Part shown: in pieces, positions 13,554 through 20,142 of the stretch
Numbering within the stretch: the stretch's first letter is position 1
Layout of the letters: each line of letters opens with the position of its first letter
From: a bacterium
GTDB taxonomy: Bacteria > UBA8248
Direction of reading: 5' to 3'
Length of the DNA: 64,000 nucleotides
Assembly: GCA_963692865.2 (NCBI GenBank)
Contig: OY843592.1
Coordinates: forward strand, 2,784,001-2,848,000
Made by a program: the position numbers and the translations under genes
The notes under the pieces: model-generated
Database searches by the model: none
The model's input: the letters and a program-made list of their open reading frames with translations, nothing else
Told to the model about the DNA's origin: nothing

Positions 13554-14591
13554 ATGAACGATTCACCGAAAATCGGCATGGCCTTCATCGGCCTCGGCTG
13601 GTGGGGCGCCGTGCTCGCCGACGCCGCCCTCGCCTCCGGGAAAGTGCAGGTAACCGGCGGCTTCGCCCGCACGCCCTCTTCCCGCGAGGAATTCGTGGGC
13701 AAATACGGCGGGAAGAATTTTTCTTCTATTGACGAGGTGATGGCCGACTCCGAAACAGAGGCCGTCGTCATCGCCACGGCGAACTCGGTACACAAAGAAA
13801 TCGCGCTCGCCGCCGCCCGCGCGGGCAAGCACGTTCACCTGGAAAAGCCGATGGCGCTCAGCGTCTCCGACGCCAAGGCCGTCGAGCAGACGTGCAGAGA
13901 CCACGGCGTCAAACTCCACATGGGGCAGAACTTCAGGCGCTGGCCGATGTTCCGAAGAGCGAAGGAAATCGTGGAGAGCGGGAGTCTCGGCCTCGTGAAC
14001 TACACGGTCGCCACGTTTTCGAACAACCACGGCTTCACCTCGGGTCCAAATAGCATGAGATGGGACGCCACGGAGAACCCGGGCGGCCCGCTCTACAGCT
14101 ACACCATCCACCTGGGCGACGTGATGGAATACCTCTTCGGCGACGTGGAGGAAGTGAGCGGCTCATGCGCCAAGGTGGGCGGCCCCAACCCCCAGGAAGA
14201 CGCCGCCGCCGCCATACTGCGCTTCAAGAGCGGGCTGATGGGTACGATATCGGGCAGCTATCTGGCGCCCTTCCATTTCGCCTTCGACGTGCAGGGCACC
14301 GAAGCGAACCTGAGCCTTTCCACCACCGAGAACCCCACCCTCAAGCGGCCCATCGACCTCATGGGCGGCCTCGAAACCGAAACCGTGGAACTCGAACACG
14401 ACCTGGTGGAGGGGAGACTTCTGGCCAACCGCGAACAATTCGACGATCTGGTCGCCGCGATTCGAGAGGACAGGGACCCCGAAGTCACCGGACGCCACGG
14501 GGTGCGCGCGCTCGCCATCATGCGGGCGATTCTCAAGAGCAACGCCGAGAGGCGCATCGTGTCGATCGAGGAGATTCTGGAGACCGACTAG
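13554..14591 (+). CDS. Gfo/Idh/MocA family oxidoreductase
   Basis: GLGWWG Rossmann motif, GKHVHLEKPMA, GGPLYSYTIH. Confidence 0.9.
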   Translation: MNDSPKIGMAFIGLGWWGAVLADAALASGKVQVTGGFARTPSSREEFVGKYGGKNFSSIDEVMADSETEAVVIATANSVHKEIALAAARAGKHVHLEKPMALSVSDAKAVEQTCRDHGVKLHMGQNFRRWPMFRRAKEIVESGSLGLVNYTVATFSNNHGFTSGPNSMRWDATENPGGPLYSYTIHLGDVMEYLFGDVEEVSGSCAKVGGPNPQEDAAAAILRFKSGLMGTISGSYLAPFHFAFDVQGTEANLSLSTTENPTLKRPIDLMGGLETETVELEHDLVEGRLLANREQFDDLVAAIREDRDPEVTGRHGVRALAIMRAILKSNAERRIVSIEEILETD

Positions 14592-14705
14592 GCCGGAAAC
14601 CAAGCCTCTCGCCACGGGGGCTCGATTCGCGTATAATCTCGACCGTTGGCCCATCGCATGTCTGCGACTTGTTCCGCCCGGACTCGTCCCGGAAACGGTT
14701 TTCCC

Positions 14706-15521
14706 ATGGGCAGGCGCCGCGATACGCCGGATTTCACCCGCTCCAACAAAATCCCGGCGCTCGAATACCAACCCAAAGCCCAGGAGCGCGAACTCACCAG
14801 CAGGCTCATCGCATCCCGGAGCGCGAGCGAGCGCGAGGCGCTGGGCCAGAATCTGCTCGACGGCATCTGCCGCAGCCTCAAAATCTCCCGCGCGCGCCTG
14901 CGCGTGTTCGAAGAGCGCCAACCCCACAAGTTGCGCGGGGGAAGACTCGCCTACAAGCTCTATGGCGTCTATCACTGCGACAGCGCGGTGATCGAAATCG
15001 CCAATCTCACCTCGATCCGCAAACAGGTCGTCGCAGGCAAGACGTTTCTGGATACCCTCATCCACGAACTCATGCACCACATCGACAGAAAACTGCTCCG
15101 AATACCCTCCACGCCCCACGGCCCCGGATTCTACGCGCGCATCGAGGACTTGAAAGCCAAGCTCATGCGTGGGAGGGGCGGGGAGCGGGAAGCTCCGCAA
15201 GAAGCCGCCTGGCAAAAACCCAAGGACCTCACGGCGGCTCTTGAGTCGGCGGCCGCAGACGCCCGGTCGAGAAACGATCATTCGAACCGGGAACAGCCGA
15301 GTGAGGCGGTCTCCGGTGAGAGCCGCGTAGAAACGAGAAATTCGAGATCGGCCCTTCCGGAAGAATCCGACTCCCTGGCACAGGCGCCACTTGTAGATGC
15401 GAACGCAGAGAACCCTCCCCAAAAACCGCCGCGCGCCCGAGGAGAAGAGAGCATTTCTGCGAATCATCCCCCAAAAGACGCTTCGGGAGAGAAGGAGCCG
15501 CAACTGTCGTTTGATTTTTAG
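14706..15521 (+). CDS. SprT/WLM-like zinc metalloprotease-domain protein with disordered tail and C-terminal QLSFDF motif
   Basis: DTLIHELMHH...PHGPGFY (HExxH plus third His); about 110-aa low-complexity tail; TATAAT at about 14632. Confidence 0.72.
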   Translation: MGRRRDTPDFTRSNKIPALEYQPKAQERELTSRLIASRSASEREALGQNLLDGICRSLKISRARLRVFEERQPHKLRGGRLAYKLYGVYHCDSAVIEIANLTSIRKQVVAGKTFLDTLIHELMHHIDRKLLRIPSTPHGPGFYARIEDLKAKLMRGRGGEREAPQEAAWQKPKDLTAALESAAADARSRNDHSNREQPSEAVSGESRVETRNSRSALPEESDSLAQAPLVDANAENPPQKPPRARGEESISANHPPKDASGEKEPQLSFDF

Positions 15522-15732
15522 CAAAATGACAGATTTTGATTCATTAGAAAGTTTTCTTCTGAAACTGTCATTTTAGGAAACAACTATGGTTTCAATATGT
15601 AAAGACAATCAGAACAGAAAAGTCGCGTTCTAAGCCAACATTTAATTTTCCGAGAGCACTCGGCTTTGGGGCAGCTGCGGCGATAGTGTATCCTATGCGC
15701 ATTAGTTGGAAGCGCCATCTGGAGACGTGCCC

Positions 15733-16944
15733 ATGAAATTCATCCACAAACTCGGAATGCGGGGTCTCCTGTCGTTTCCTCCAGACATGGAACCCTTTGA
15801 GCTTCATGACCTCAATGTTCTTATCGGCCCGAACGGCTCCGGCAAATCGAACATCATCGAAGTCATTGAACTCCTTCGCGCCACGCCGACGGATTTCGCC
15901 GCCGCAATCCGGGACGGCGGCGGGGCGGAGGAATGGATTTGGAAAGGGGAAACCAATAACAGGGTTGCTGAAATAGAAATTGAAACCGGTGACATGTCCA
16001 CCGGTCTCAAGACGCCGACCGGGCGGGCTTTACGCTACCGCCTCGAGTTCGTGGACAACAATACTCGCGTCGAAGTACTCGACGAAGCGATTGAAGAGAC
16101 AAAACCTCTCCCTGGCAAAACAGATACTTATTTCTACTACCGTTTCCAACGGGGAAACCCCGCTGTCAACATAAGGGAACATGGCGAAACCATTCAGAAA
16201 GAAAAACCCCCTCGATGGATAGAAAGGCGTGAACTACAACCGGATCAGTCTGCTCTCAAACAAATCAAGGGGCCGGAATTATATCCAGAATTGACTTGGC
16301 TGGGACGACAATTTGAAGAAATCCAGATGCTGCGCGACTGGACCTTCGGGCGCTACACGAAACCACGTGAGGCACAACGGGTGGATTTGCGCGAAGACCG
16401 CCTCCTTGACGACTGCCGCAATCTCGCCCTTATCCTCAACAAAATCGAACACGAGCAGGTTTCACTTGAATTCAACAAGCTTCTCAAGCGCTTCTTTCCC
16501 TGCTTCGAGAATATGTCCACCAGGGTATCCGGTGGCAGGATACAGTTTTATCTGCATGAAACAGGCTTCCGCTCTGCAGTCCCGGCAACGCGTCTTTCTG
16601 ACGGGACGCTCCGGTTCGTCGCGCTCCTCGCCACGCTGCTGACGCCTTCGCCGCCGCCGCTGGTCTGCATCGACGAGCCGGAATTGGGACTTCACCCCGA
16701 CGCAATATCCCTCGTCGGTGATCTCATGGTCGAGGCATCCGAGCGCACCCAACTCATCGTCGCGACCCACTCGGATGCGCTTATCTCCGTCCTGTCCGGC
16801 AAACCGGATGCAGTAATCGCCTGCGAGAGGCTGGGCGAAGGAACGACGCTGCGTCGGCTCGACTCCGATAAGCTCGCGCACTGGCTGGAGGATTATGCGC
16901 TCGGCGACCTGTGGCGCATGGGGGAGTTGGGCGCTAATCCGTGA
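15733..16944 (+). CDS. ABC-type ATPase (AAA_15/AAA_21, AbiEii/RloA-like)
   Basis: Walker A GPNGSGKS, signature LSDGTLRF, Walker B IDEPELGLHP, H-loop ATHS. Confidence 0.9.
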   Translation: MKFIHKLGMRGLLSFPPDMEPFELHDLNVLIGPNGSGKSNIIEVIELLRATPTDFAAAIRDGGGAEEWIWKGETNNRVAEIEIETGDMSTGLKTPTGRALRYRLEFVDNNTRVEVLDEAIEETKPLPGKTDTYFYYRFQRGNPAVNIREHGETIQKEKPPRWIERRELQPDQSALKQIKGPELYPELTWLGRQFEEIQMLRDWTFGRYTKPREAQRVDLREDRLLDDCRNLALILNKIEHEQVSLEFNKLLKRFFPCFENMSTRVSGGRIQFYLHETGFRSAVPATRLSDGTLRFVALLATLLTPSPPPLVCIDEPELGLHPDAISLVGDLMVEASERTQLIVATHSDALISVLSGKPDAVIACERLGEGTTLRRLDSDKLAHWLEDYALGDLWRMGELGANP

Positions 16945-17555
16945 AAATCGCGATCTACATGGAAGGCGGAGGGCCAAAATCCAACTCCCAGGCCATGCTG
17001 CGCCAAGGAATGGATGCGTTTCTAGCGAAAATCAAAGACGCTTACTGCAAGAAGAAATGGAATTGGAAGCTGGTTCCTTGCGGGGGGCGAGACGAGGCGC
17101 ATAAACGTTTTCAAAACGAACGCAGAAACAACAACGCCGACATCATCGTGCTCCTGGTGGATTCGGAAACCAAAGTCTTCAAGAAACCCGCCGCTCACCT
17201 AGCAGCGCGTGACGGATGGAATTTCGACGGCGTCGACGGCGATTTTATCCACCTCATGGTTCAGACGATGGAGACGTGGATAGTCGCCGATCCGGAGGCA
17301 CTCGCTAGTTATTACGAGCAGGGCTTTCAAGCAAACACCCTGCCCCGCCACCAGAATCTTGAAGCGGTGAGAAAACGCGATATCGCACAGGCTCTAAATC
17401 GAGCCACTCAAAGAACGCGAAAGGGGAAATACCACAAAATCCAACATGCCAGACATCTCCTGCAACAAATCGATCCGGTGACCGTGCGCGAAAAGTGTCC
17501 ACATTGCGAACGGCTGTTCGAGATACTCCTCGGGCGCATGGATTCCGGCGTATAA
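16941..17555 (+). CDS. DUF4276 / RloB-like (TOPRIM-like) protein
   Basis: IYMEGG, LLVDSE, MVQTMETWIVAD, YHK, CP motifs; GTGA overlap with the ATPase. Confidence 0.78.
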   Translation: MKIAIYMEGGGPKSNSQAMLRQGMDAFLAKIKDAYCKKKWNWKLVPCGGRDEAHKRFQNERRNNNADIIVLLVDSETKVFKKPAAHLAARDGWNFDGVDGDFIHLMVQTMETWIVADPEALASYYEQGFQANTLPRHQNLEAVRKRDIAQALNRATQRTRKGKYHKIQHARHLLQQIDPVTVREKCPHCERLFEILLGRMDSGV

Positions 17556-17797
17556 ATCAGAATCCTCACTCAGGAGCCGCAACTGTCGTTCGATTTTTGA
17601 TTTCTATAATCTGCTTTAGATAAACGACATTAGAACCTGAAATATAAAGTGAAAAAAATTCAAGCAATACGCCCGCTTGGAGCGATCTCCCGTTTCCCGC
17701 TTCGGGCGGTTGTTTTTCGTCCGGCGATTGGGTAAAGAAGTGATCTGGGCATACGCCATCATACAATCCAGAGCATATCGCAGAGGAGTTTCCCAAC

Positions 17798-18490
17798 ATG
17801 AGACCGGCTAACGATTCCGTCCCGAAACCCTGGGGACCGCTGGCGGGTTTTTGGTCCTGGCAATACCTGAACCTGTGGAAGACCGTCAAACTCGTCACGA
17901 GCAAACGGGTCAAGAGTTTTTACGAGAAATTCCCGGACGTCCTTCCTCCCGGCGCCTCCTTCCCCGACTTCGAGCTCAAGGACATCCGCGGGAACGTCCA
18001 CCGCATGGCGGATTATCTGGGGAAGAAATACGTGGTGATCACCACGGGCGCCATCACGTGACCGCCCTACAGGCGGCAGGTGCCGTTCTATGAGGAGTTG
18101 CAGGAGAAGTACGCGGAGCGCGACGTGGTGGTCTTCAATCTCTACGTGAGGGAACCCCACGCGGGCGAGCGCGGATTCCCCGAGATCAGAAACCACGAAT
18201 CCTACGAGCACAAGCGGAGCTACGCGCAGAAGCTGGCCGAGATCAAGAACATGGGGACCAACATCCTGATCGACGAGATGGACCAGAAGGTGCACGCCAT
18301 GCTCGGTGATTTGCCGAACACCATCTGGCTCATCGGCAAGGACGGAAAAGTCGCCTACAAGTGCACGTGGTCGAACGCCGAGCACGTGGATGAATATCTG
18401 GCCCGGATGGTGAACGAGGACCCCGAGTTCGAGGGGATGCCCGAAATGGAGCAGACCATCTTCACCGCCCGCGCCGGCACGGCCATCTAG
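17798..18490 (+). CDS. Iodothyronine deiodinase-like (thioredoxin-fold) selenoprotein, Sec at UGA 18059-18061
   Basis: ORFs 17798-18061 and 18080-18490 share a frame; read-through gives VITTGAIT-U-PPYRRQ...NLYVREPHAGE...ILIDEMD, matching the deiodinase FGSxT-U-PPF and YIxEAH motifs; SECIS-like hairpin follows the UGA. Confidence 0.88.
18062..18090 (+). promoter_or_regulatory. Bacterial SECIS-like hairpin
   Basis: GGCGGC-AGGT-GCCGTT stem-loop; loop starts 16 nt after the UGA and contains G. Confidence 0.7.
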
Positions 18491-18506
18491 CGAAACCGCT
18501 CGCCTG

Positions 18507-18540
18507 AAAGCGCCCCCGGAGCCGGGGGCGTTTTTCGTTT
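18507..18540 (+). terminator. Rho-independent terminator after the selenoprotein gene
   Basis: GCGCCCCCGG-AG-CCGGGGGCGT followed by TTTTCGTTT. Confidence 0.7.
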
Positions 18541-18567: not shown

Positions 18568-19092
18568 ATGGACGCGCCGACAATCATCAAGGAGCGCCTC
18601 GAAGCCTACGGCATGAGGCTCAGAGAAGTCATGGAAGACGTCACCGATGAAGACCTCATGCTCCAGCCCGGCCCGAACGACAACCCCATGGGCTGGCTCG
18701 TATGGCACATGACGCGCTTCGAGGACAGGACGTTCTCGTTCCTCGGCAAAACCCCGGAACTCTGGATAGAAGGGAAATGGCACGAGCGCTTCGGCATGGC
18801 GCCCGACCCCGAATGCACCGGCGTGGGCTTCACGCTCGAACAGGTCCTCGCGCTTCAGGTCGGCAAGGACGCCCTGATGGGCTATTTCGAAGCGGTGCGC
18901 GGGAAAACGCTCCCCTGCCTCTCGGGGCTGAGCGCGGCGGACCTCGACCGGGAGGAAATCGATTTCTACACCAAGAAACCCATCAAACTCGGCCTCGTCC
19001 TGGGGAGATTTCTCGGCGACCACCTCTCGCACGTGGGGCAGATCTGCTACCTGAGGGGCCACATCGCGGGCTGGGGGCGATATCCCGCATAG
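18568..19092 (+). CDS. DinB/YfiT-like family protein
   Basis: NPMGWLVWHM and HLSHVGQI His triad; GGAGG RBS. Confidence 0.85.
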   Translation: MDAPTIIKERLEAYGMRLREVMEDVTDEDLMLQPGPNDNPMGWLVWHMTRFEDRTFSFLGKTPELWIEGKWHERFGMAPDPECTGVGFTLEQVLALQVGKDALMGYFEAVRGKTLPCLSGLSAADLDREEIDFYTKKPIKLGLVLGRFLGDHLSHVGQICYLRGHIAGWGRYPA

Positions 19093-19096
19093 TTCG

Positions 19097-20098
19097 CTAG
19101 TCGAGTTCTCCCAGTACCTTAAGCGCGCGCTTCACGTCCTCCTCGGGCGTCTCGTCGGGCACGCGGAAAAGCGGCTGCGTGACGCCCGTCTCCCTGAGAG
19201 CGGCCAGCATCTCGTTGCACCGGGATTTGGGGCCGCAGACGGCGAGGTCGTCCACCAGTTCGTCCGAGAGCGCCTCCCCCACCGCCCGGCGGCCGCCCTT
19301 CCGCCAGGCCGCGCGGATGTTGTCGGCGTCCTCCCCGTAGCCCCACCGCGTGAGCTGGGCGTGGTAGTAATCGCCCATCGCGCCGATGTAGAACCCGAGT
19401 TCGGGTTTGACGAGCGAACGCGCGCGCTCCAGATCGTCAAAGGGCGCCGTGTAGACGAAGGGAGCCACGTCGATTTCGGAGACCGCCCTGCCCGCCGATT
19501 CAGCGCCCTCCTCCAGGAATTCAAGCGCGTCCTTCGTCCTCGAAAAAGGAATGCAGAAAGGAATCCAGCCGTCCGCGATCTCTCCGGTCAGCCTCGTGTA
19601 GTTCGGACCATTCGACCCCAGATAAATGGGCAGACGCTCCTGCACCGGCTTTCGCCTGAGCTTGAAGCCGCTCATCCGGTAGATTTCGCCGTCCAGTTCC
19701 ACGCGCTCGCCCCGGAACGCCTGGCGCAGGGCTTCGACCATCTCCCGGGAGCGCTTGAGCGGACTGCCGAAGGGAATCCCGTGCCAGTTCTCGATCACCG
19801 CCTTGCCGCTCGAACCCAGCCCCAGATGGAAACGGCCATCGCTCAACACGTCGAGTTCCGCCGCCGTCTGCGCCATGAGGCCGGGCGTTCTCCCGTAGAT
19901 GTTGAACACCGCGGCGCCCAGCTTGAGCTTGTCCACCGCCTGCGCCGCCATGGCGATGAGTATGCTCCCGTCGCGCACCCAGGTCTCGGGAAACCAGAGC
20001 GAATCGACCCCCGATTCCTCGCACCACCGGGCGAACCGCGGCACGTCGCGCGCGTCGATGGTCTCCTGATGCCACAAAACGACCCCTTTTTTCGTCAT
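19097..20098 (-). CDS. LLM class (F420/flavin-dependent) oxidoreductase
   Basis: LWFPETW, RTPGLMAQTAAELDVLSDGRFHLGLG, PIYLG, GEIADGW. Confidence 0.9.
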   Translation of the reverse strand: MTKKGVVLWHQETIDARDVPRFARWCEESGVDSLWFPETWVRDGSILIAMAAQAVDKLKLGAAVFNIYGRTPGLMAQTAAELDVLSDGRFHLGLGSSGKAVIENWHGIPFGSPLKRSREMVEALRQAFRGERVELDGEIYRMSGFKLRRKPVQERLPIYLGSNGPNYTRLTGEIADGWIPFCIPFSRTKDALEFLEEGAESAGRAVSEIDVAPFVYTAPFDDLERARSLVKPELGFYIGAMGDYYHAQLTRWGYGEDADNIRAAWRKGGRRAVGEALSDELVDDLAVCGPKSRCNEMLAALRETGVTQPLFRVPDETPEEDVKRALKVLGELD

Positions 20099-20142
20099 GA
20101 ACCGACTCCCTTTTGACAACGGCAACTCATCGAGTTTCGCGC

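Follow-up and report, generated by a model that had tools for sequence, protein, structure and literature searches.

In a 64,000-nucleotide stretch of a UBA8248 bacterial genome (GenBank assembly GCA_963692865.2, contig OY843592.1, positions 2,784,001 to 2,848,000 of the forward strand; hereafter the window), positions 17798-18490 probably form one intact gene encoding a selenocysteine (Sec)-containing member of the bacterial deiodinase-like family (Pfam PF00837). I put the probability of this reading at roughly 0.85. The UGA at 18059 is taken as a Sec codon because four independent lines of evidence agree: the Sec machinery of the genome, the conservation of the codon, the cysteine (Cys) homologues, and an RNA element resembling a selenocysteine insertion sequence (SECIS). 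A sequence-only reading of the window had proposed that a deiodinase-like selenoprotein is hidden here, marked by an in-frame UGA and a SECIS, and this proposal is now supported by a hidden Markov model (HMM) match, homologues, sel genes, and the conserved TGA. The elements of the gene are the following.

17798..18490, plus strand: full coding sequence of the deiodinase-like selenoprotein, 230 amino acids (aa), Sec as residue 88, stop codon TAG at 18488-18490

18059..18061, plus strand: UGA codon as Sec (U88) in the motif G-A-I-T-U-P-P-Y; the codon is kept in copies, with Cys in homologues

18072..18087, plus strand: SECIS hairpin GGCGGC-AGGU-GCCGUU, with the 5′ arm at 18072-18077, the loop AGGU at 18078-18081, and the 3′ arm at 18082-18087

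The frame starts with the ATG at 17798, runs through the TGA at 18059-18061 (...ATC ACG TGA CCG CCC TAC...), and ends with the TAG. The sequence-only reading had joined two short open reading frames (ORFs) in a common frame through this TGA, and all of the segments that it listed (TGAITUPPY, YVREPHAGE, IRNHESYEHK, and ILIDEMD) are indeed present in the 230-aa read-through product. In the read-through search, the alignments of relatives span residues 1-230 without a frame change and contain a single TGA. Is it conceivable that the locus is a pseudogene, two separate small genes, or an intact gene with a sequencing error at the TGA? Gene callers do cut the gene everywhere, leaving ORFs of 87 and 136 aa under translation table 11. 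As had been expected of standard annotation, 45 of the 45 close database proteins, found in a collection of 5.8 billion proteins, are C-terminal pieces of 127-137 aa, the named ones being called 'hypothetical protein', and N-terminal pieces of 87-112 aa are also present. Against such a split, the same TGA is shared by all of the 107 best matches (51 genomes) and by three paralogue lineages, the two halves being conserved in a common frame, and the modelled catalytic fold would require both halves. Against an error, a DNA sequencing run that is possibly the source sample has no differences at the TGA at a depth of 39.5. I regard this alternative as extremely improbable.

The Sec machinery is complete. 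In the source genome (4.15 Mb, 8 contigs), selD (334.6 bits), selA (567 bits), selB (392 bits), and the tRNA-Sec (76.7 bits) all score above the curated cut-offs, and the selB gene adjoins the selA gene; the selA/selB/selC/selD set on which the Sec proposal depended is thus all there. The selD gene itself encodes a selenoprotein with the motif K-A-G-G-U-G-S-K and one in-frame TGA (G000:C1:65915-66877, minus strand; L001). Two tRNA-Sec matches of equal score lie on contigs 1 and 4 (G000:C1:1207504-1207596 and G000:C4:29719-29811), which may reflect a duplicate contig, since the contamination estimate of the genome is 6.69%.

The codon is conserved throughout the phylum. A read-through search of the 51 genomes of the phylum gave a match in each genome, and the 107 best matches (E <= 2.3e-39; counted manually from the match listing), ranging from 94% down to about 37% identity, have exactly one TGA apiece. 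The match ranked after these 107 ends at residue 87, on a contig end. No Cys variant occurs among the 107 best matches. In all 54 of the copies extracted from 52 loci, the TGA lies at the same codon in the context G-A/S-x-T-TGA-P/A-P; three of the gene copies are found in the genome of the window. The codon is thus present in 51 genomes as well as in the DNA run mentioned above, which agrees with the expectation that reads should support it.

Outside these copies, Cys takes the place of Sec. An exhaustive profile-free search returned 2133 relatives at E <= 0.001, in which fragments came top and were followed by full-length proteins of 30-40% identity. An alignment was made of 122 full-length relatives and the query (123 sequences). 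In the column of Sec88, the 122 homologues have Cys in 112 cases, Ser in 5, Gly in 3, Asp in 1, and Thr in 1, so that Cys predominates opposite the UGA, where the sequence-only reading had proposed to look for Cys or Sec. TGA is also the commonest stop codon in the window; it ends 33 of the 61 stop-to-stop frames of at least 300 aa, and the neighboring AAA_21 gene as well, which indicates a genome without global TGA recoding. Contigs from RNA libraries of two studies span the TGA (X1, 17931-18191; X4, 17962-18151) with no change listed there. These contigs count for little as transcript evidence, since DNA can be present in RNA libraries and 20 further differences are not shown. The RNA runs cover only small parts of the window, and the uncovered parts are uninformative.

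The fourth line is the RNA element. A bacterial SECIS is a hairpin just 3′ of the UGA with a G in its small apical loop (PMC1088965). The hairpin GGCGGC-AGGU-GCCGUU is present just as it had been described from the sequence, with exactly 16 nucleotides (nt) from the UGA to the first base of the loop, and in some copies the loop reads AGUU or AAGU instead of AGGU. When 53 distinct copies were folded together with RNAalifold, the same hairpin was recovered unprompted (columns 24-28/33-37), and its pairs form in 91.8% of the alignment cells. Double-sided changes were found in 3 of the 6 hairpin pairs, amounting to 14 cells as against 2.6 in shuffles, and none of the 500 shuffles reaches 14. Such compensatory changes can be silent at the protein level; for example, an Arg codon changed from CGG to AGG together with a Pro codon changed from CCG to CCU, both synonymous. 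The contigs carrying the paralogues align to the window at 18047-18085 only, that is, at the UGA and the hairpin core. Furthermore, the normalized synonymous-codon entropy at conserved residues is 0.45 in codons 84-97 and 0.73 elsewhere (Mann-Whitney p = 5.8e-5), although this codon window was picked after inspection of the data.

That choice of codons is one of several points that weigh against the reading. The shuffle controls ignore the relatedness of the copies. A control slid by +1 has a similar covariation score (0.214 vs 0.212), with pairs in 55.7% of the cells. Folding of 18059-18110 alone gives z = 0.34, no better than shuffles, and the minimum-energy fold of the single sequence is a rival hairpin, which is paired in 89.4% of the cells. 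A search of Rfam at permissive thresholds returned chance-level matches only and no family. The hairpin after the TGA of the genome's own selD gene has a predicted fold with a different apical loop, which leaves the comparison ambiguous. Finally, the support for Sec decoding and for the family identity is computational throughout.

Several candidate signals were rejected. The rival hairpin (columns 13-17/23-27) has 3 double-sided cells, a number equalled in 22 of the 500 shuffles, and is broken in the paralogues. A lower stem beneath the SECIS hairpin (columns 15-22/42-49) reaches no more than 70.9% paired cells and is not claimed. The invariant R-R-Q after Sec was initially considered to have been shaped by the SECIS; this argument was dropped in favor of the synonymous sites, because Dio2 has T-R-Q-L-P there and the protein itself may need R-R-Q.

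What kind of protein does the gene encode? As a single sequence, the read-through protein matches the Pfam T4_deiodinase HMM with 39 bits (cut-off 27), which bears out the assignment made from motifs. T4_deiodinase is matched by 121 of the 123 aligned family members, with a best E-value of 1.7e-37. When the family profile was compared with PDB, Dio3 (9.9e-30) and Dio2 (4.4e-23) came out ahead, with ResA next at 8e-14. The AlphaFold model shows a thioredoxin/peroxiredoxin fold with a mean confidence (pLDDT) of 83.6 and values over 90 for residues 50-210, and the highest query-normalized TM-scores in Foldseek belong to Dio2 (0.60) and Dio3 (0.58). Some of the scores point elsewhere and count against the family assignment: AhpC-TSA reaches 43 bits (cut-off 26), slightly above the 39 bits of T4_deiodinase, Redoxin also passes with 38.9 bits, and Foldseek ranks the ResA-like oxidoreductase 4nmu first, Dio3 second, and Dio2 eighteenth. 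The fold alone does not separate deiodinases from ResA-like proteins in Foldseek.

These scores raise the question of whether the protein is a TlpA/ResA-type thiol-disulfide oxidoreductase that merely resembles deiodinases. Its best single-sequence matches in PDB are thiol-disulfide oxidoreductases (4k9z, 1.6e-7), and 4nmu at the top of the Foldseek list points the same way. On the other hand, the CxxC motif of these enzymes is absent, position +3 being Tyr or Phe with no partner Cys conserved, and the family profile puts deiodinases ahead by 16 orders of magnitude. I consider this identity quite improbable. In NCBIfam, the best match of the protein is NF038285, deiodinase_rel (1e-19, 71.2 bits); it is below the 250-bit cut-off and aligns only with positions 180-324 of the 347 profile positions, and the protein is a non-member of that family.

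The active site supports the deiodinase-like assignment. The sequence G-S-A-T-C-P-P-F-T-R-Q-L-P of Dio2 aligns with G-A-I-T-U-P-P-Y-R-R-Q-V-P of the window protein; the crystal constructs of Dio2 and Dio3, in which Sec is replaced by Cys (PDB 9h48 and 4tr3), have T-C-P-P-F, while the bacterial clade has T-U-P-P-Y/F. For Dio2, a proton relay of Ser127, Thr129, Tyr157, Glu160, His162, and His182 has been proposed (PMC11592359). T87, Y116, E119, H121, and H133 of the window protein align with Thr129, Tyr157, Glu160, His162, and His182, respectively, which accounts for five of the six relay residues. The sixth speaks against a full correspondence, as the relay Ser (Ser127 of Dio2) is replaced by Ala85, and Ala is found in 52 of the 54 copies. 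The Dio-specific insertion loop (loop-D) has both of its His-bearing edges in the window protein, but only 11 residues lie between the two relay His residues, compared with 16 in Dio3 and 19 in Dio2, which makes the loop shorter by 5-8 residues. In Dio, this loop borders the catalytic center and helps to recognize thyronine, according to PMC11592359. Among redox residues, Sec88 alone is invariant; 25 of the 54 copies have Cys189, and the other Cys columns are not conserved. Residue 118 (18149-18151) is Arg in 111 of the 123 family members and Lys in the paralogues, while Dio2 and Dio3 have Asp or Glu there (Y-I-D/E-E-A-H); a basic residue beside the catalytic chalcogen recalls peroxiredoxins by analogy.

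In other respects, the window protein and the vertebrate enzymes differ. The identity with Dio2 and Dio3 is only 20-22%, although the fold is the same, and the SECIS lies inside the coding sequence rather than in the 3′ untranslated region as in vertebrate Dio. The N-terminus has an aromatic amphipathic segment and, unlike Dio, no obvious transmembrane helix, as judged without a membrane prediction. An N-terminal motif P-x-G-P-L-x-G-x-W-S (17828-17857, residues 11-20) is kept in 50-53 of the 54 copies and in all three paralogue clades, and it was not found in the consensus of the Cys homologues. It is followed by a predicted aromatic amphipathic helix of low pLDDT at residues 16-32; this segment may bind membranes.

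The family itself has been known as a prediction. Deiodinase-like selenoproteins were predicted in 2005 from Sargasso Sea data as four Sec and six Cys sequences, in line with the statement in the sequence-only reading that such proteins have been reported from marine metagenomes, and Zhang, Fomenko and Gladyshev anticipated 'a redox function' for them, not the deiodination of hormones (PMC1088965). The window gene resembles that family in its PF00837 match, its in-frame UGA with a bacterial SECIS bearing a G in the loop, its Cys homologues, and the origin of the prediction in marine metagenomes. That it is a genuine member of the 2005 family, and that it represents a new clade of this known predicted family, is well supported. 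Reviews from 2022 and 2026 still describe the family as computationally predicted and give its motif as UxxC (PMC9312934 and PMC13188914). The window clade instead has U-P-P-Y/F; at +3, Cys is seen in 4 of the 123 aligned sequences, while the 54 copies from the phylum all lack it. A further difference from the published family is the presence of up to three Sec paralogues per genome, each with a different gene neighborhood. No assayed bacterial member of the deiodinase-like family was found in a literature search.

According to the BSepDB paper, metagenome-assembled genomes (MAGs) of GTDB UBA8248 are among those with the richest selenoproteomes, at 48-54 genes. One UBA8248 MAG listed in BSepDB carries an orthologue with 71% identity (L116), and BSepDB may already hold the window gene; the word 'deiodinase' is absent from the main text of the paper and from the available part of its supplementary organism list. 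All 26 of the 26 named relatives come from uncultured MAGs labelled Nitrospinota, Nitrospinaceae, Tectomicrobia, or 'bacterium'.

The surroundings of the gene were then compared over 31 related loci, consisting of 29 orthologue loci and the two paralogue loci of the window's genome. The neighboring features in the window are listed below.

14163-15524, minus strand: 453-aa ORF upstream, with no Pfam or NCBIfam family, conserved in 21 of the 31 loci

15706-17555, plus strand: upstream pair of an AAA_21 ATPase gene and a DUF4276 gene, 135.8 and 90.4 bits, with a 4-nt overlap

17690..17719, plus strand: terminator-like hairpin and T-run ending the upstream unit, stem at 17690-17709, tail TTGTTTTTCG; a consensus match only

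17783..17788, plus strand: Shine-Dalgarno-like GAGGAG, 9 nt 5′ of the ATG, seen by eye in the sequence

18506..18540, plus strand: intrinsic terminator, a GC-rich hairpin of 13 pairs followed by a U-tract, 16 nt past the stop codon, from folding

18568..19092, plus strand: DinB_2 or mycothiol-transferase-like gene, Pfam DinB_2 38.5 bits, NCBIfam MST_Rv0443 114 bits (cut-off 170)

19097..20125, minus strand: convergent luciferase-like monooxygenase gene whose nearest models are of the F420 class, Bac_luciferase 237.6 bits, TIGR04024 264 bits (cut-off 345)

The strong downstream terminator (18506-18535) folds with -27.8 kcal/mol (z = -2.33), and 3 of 200 shuffles fold equally well. With a terminator-like site on one side and this terminator on the other, the selenoprotein gene probably has its own transcript. 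The convergent luciferase-like monooxygenase gene is the most conserved neighbor, being present in 23 of the 31 loci, other genera included. The DinB_2 gene lies downstream on the same strand in 19 of the 31 loci, all within one genus, and no functional link of it to the selenoprotein gene was shown. The AAA_21/DUF4276 pair looks like an inserted two-gene module, since it is present in only 3 of the 31 loci; it is possibly a defense module. A 394-aa ORF opposite and overlapping the 453-aa ORF is probably spurious.

The paralogues have neighborhoods of their own. On contig 1 of the same genome lies the clade-A paralogue (G000:C1, about 1394982-1395596, minus strand; L077:2253-5615), which is about 41% identical and carries a TGA and a hairpin of its own. 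In clade A, an SsuD-like FMNH2-dependent monooxygenase gene (331 bits, under the cut-offs of 510-518) comes next after the paralogue, in the same orientation, at 7 of 7 same-genus loci, and a Flavin_Reduct gene follows it in two annotated loci. In 2 of the 7 loci, an ORF for an HNH endonuclease lies between the clade-A paralogue and the monooxygenase gene. The clade-B paralogue, about 40% identical and with one TGA, is on the same contig (G000:C1, about 3161031-3161642, minus strand; L088). It is flanked by the genes of an MFS transporter and a GNAT (FR47-like) acetyltransferase, and of the 7 clade-B-type loci fetched, 5 show this arrangement. In G039 and G038, genomes from a different genus (L065, L066, and L092), the orthologue is followed or preceded in tandem by a clade-B-like paralogue with the same orientation; the two genes are about 190 nt apart in L092, and each has its own TGA and hairpin.

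What might the protein do? In the reading favored here, SelA/SelB/SelC/SelD decode the UGA at 18059 as Sec, and the hairpin at 18072-18087, itself part of the coding sequence, serves as the guide. The product has a thioredoxin/peroxiredoxin-type fold with Sec88 at the start of helix 1, flanked by the Thr, Tyr, Glu, His, and His relay residues. In the proposed mechanism, it would work as a one-selenol reductase, in which a small substrate is attacked at an electrophilic atom by the selenolate and the resulting Se-X intermediate (a selenenic acid or a selenenyl halide) is reduced by an external thiol; an external thiol would be needed because there is no conserved second Cys. This mechanism is somewhat more likely than not. 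As for the substrate, a hydroperoxide or similar oxidant is inferred at a little under even odds and an organohalogen at about one chance in five, with a disulfide or another compound taking up the rest. That ranking comes from gene context and analogy alone, which tells against leaning on it.

The protein may be a peroxidase like peroxiredoxins or GPx, which removes hydroperoxides, possibly those from uncoupled flavin-dependent monooxygenases encoded nearby. Such a role is the first choice, although it falls slightly short of an even chance, because flavin-dependent monooxygenase genes recur nearby and because the 1-Cys peroxiredoxin LsfA of Pseudomonas aeruginosa is induced along with the ssu and msu operons. 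It is in keeping with the AhpC-TSA and Redoxin matches above the cut-offs, with fold matches to 1-Cys peroxiredoxins such as LsfA (7kuu and 6p0w), with a single catalytic chalcogen lacking a resolving Cys, and with the Arg that most members have at position 118 in place of the Asp or Glu of Dio2 and Dio3. The genomic associations are those of the clade-A paralogue directly upstream of the SsuD-like monooxygenase gene, with the flavin reductase gene after it, and of the window gene with the convergent luciferase-like monooxygenase gene. LsfA is tied to FMNH2-dependent sulfonate-type monooxygenases by co-induction, whereas clade A of the bacterial deiodinase-like proteins is tied to them by adjacency. 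The lsfA gene presumably adjoins the ssu genes.

The peroxidase role meets several difficulties. With the family profile, deiodinases score better than peroxiredoxins by many orders of magnitude, and the active-site motifs differ. In the peroxiredoxin motif, a Thr lies three residues before the peroxidatic Cys; here, the Thr is at -1 of Sec and not at -3. The monooxygenase gene of the window is on the opposite strand, and hence co-expression is not implied. The neighbors of the third paralogue, encoding the MFS transporter and the GNAT acetyltransferase, are unrelated to such a role.

Alternatively, the protein may be a reductive dehalogenase that depends on Sec and shares the chemistry of the animal deiodinases, taking iodine or bromine off halogenated phenolics such as halotyrosines and bromophenols. 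The U-P-P-Y motif resembles the T-C-P-P-F of the Dio2 and Dio3 chains and not the UxxC of the reviews, five of the six Dio relay residues are present, and Sec is kept without exception in the phylum. Contigs of near-relatives come from runs labelled 'sponge metagenome', and sponge-type habitats are rich in organobromines. In Dio, the iodine is taken up by the selenolate (PMC11592359). Nevertheless, no neighboring gene linked to halogen metabolism was found at the annotated loci, and the inter-His loop, which in Dio borders the site and aids thyronine recognition, has 11 residues instead of 16 (Dio3) or 19 (Dio2). Cys replaces Sec in most relatives. Moreover, a deiodinase homologue of Dictyostelium was excluded as the dechlorinase of the differentiation-inducing factor (DIF), and the authors who defined the bacterial family expected a different, redox function, as noted above for PMC1088965. 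By analogy with the animal enzymes, a dehalogenase activity is conceivable but unlikely; it is a speculation drawn from family resemblance.

Whatever its substrate, the selenoprotein gene has consequences for how the family is recorded and studied. The public gene calls for the clade are wrong throughout, and surveys built on public gene calls will miss the gene, because all of the close entries are fragments. The family has been without a substrate since 2005, and the UBA8248 lineage is unusually clean material for finding one: Sec is always retained, the active site is nearer to the vertebrate form than to UxxC, and a genome has up to three paralogues. The operon partner of clade A, an SsuD-like monooxygenase gene followed by a flavin reductase gene, suggests concrete assays. 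It is a doubtful but attractive idea that these proteins are Sec-dependent reductive dehalogenases of natural bromo- and iodo-phenolics in marine and sponge-associated uncultured bacteria. If this were true, deiodinase chemistry with a vertebrate-type U-P-P-F/Y site would have arisen in bacteria long before thyroid signalling, and the three paralogues would differ in substrate or pathway, with one being coupled to a two-component flavin monooxygenase.

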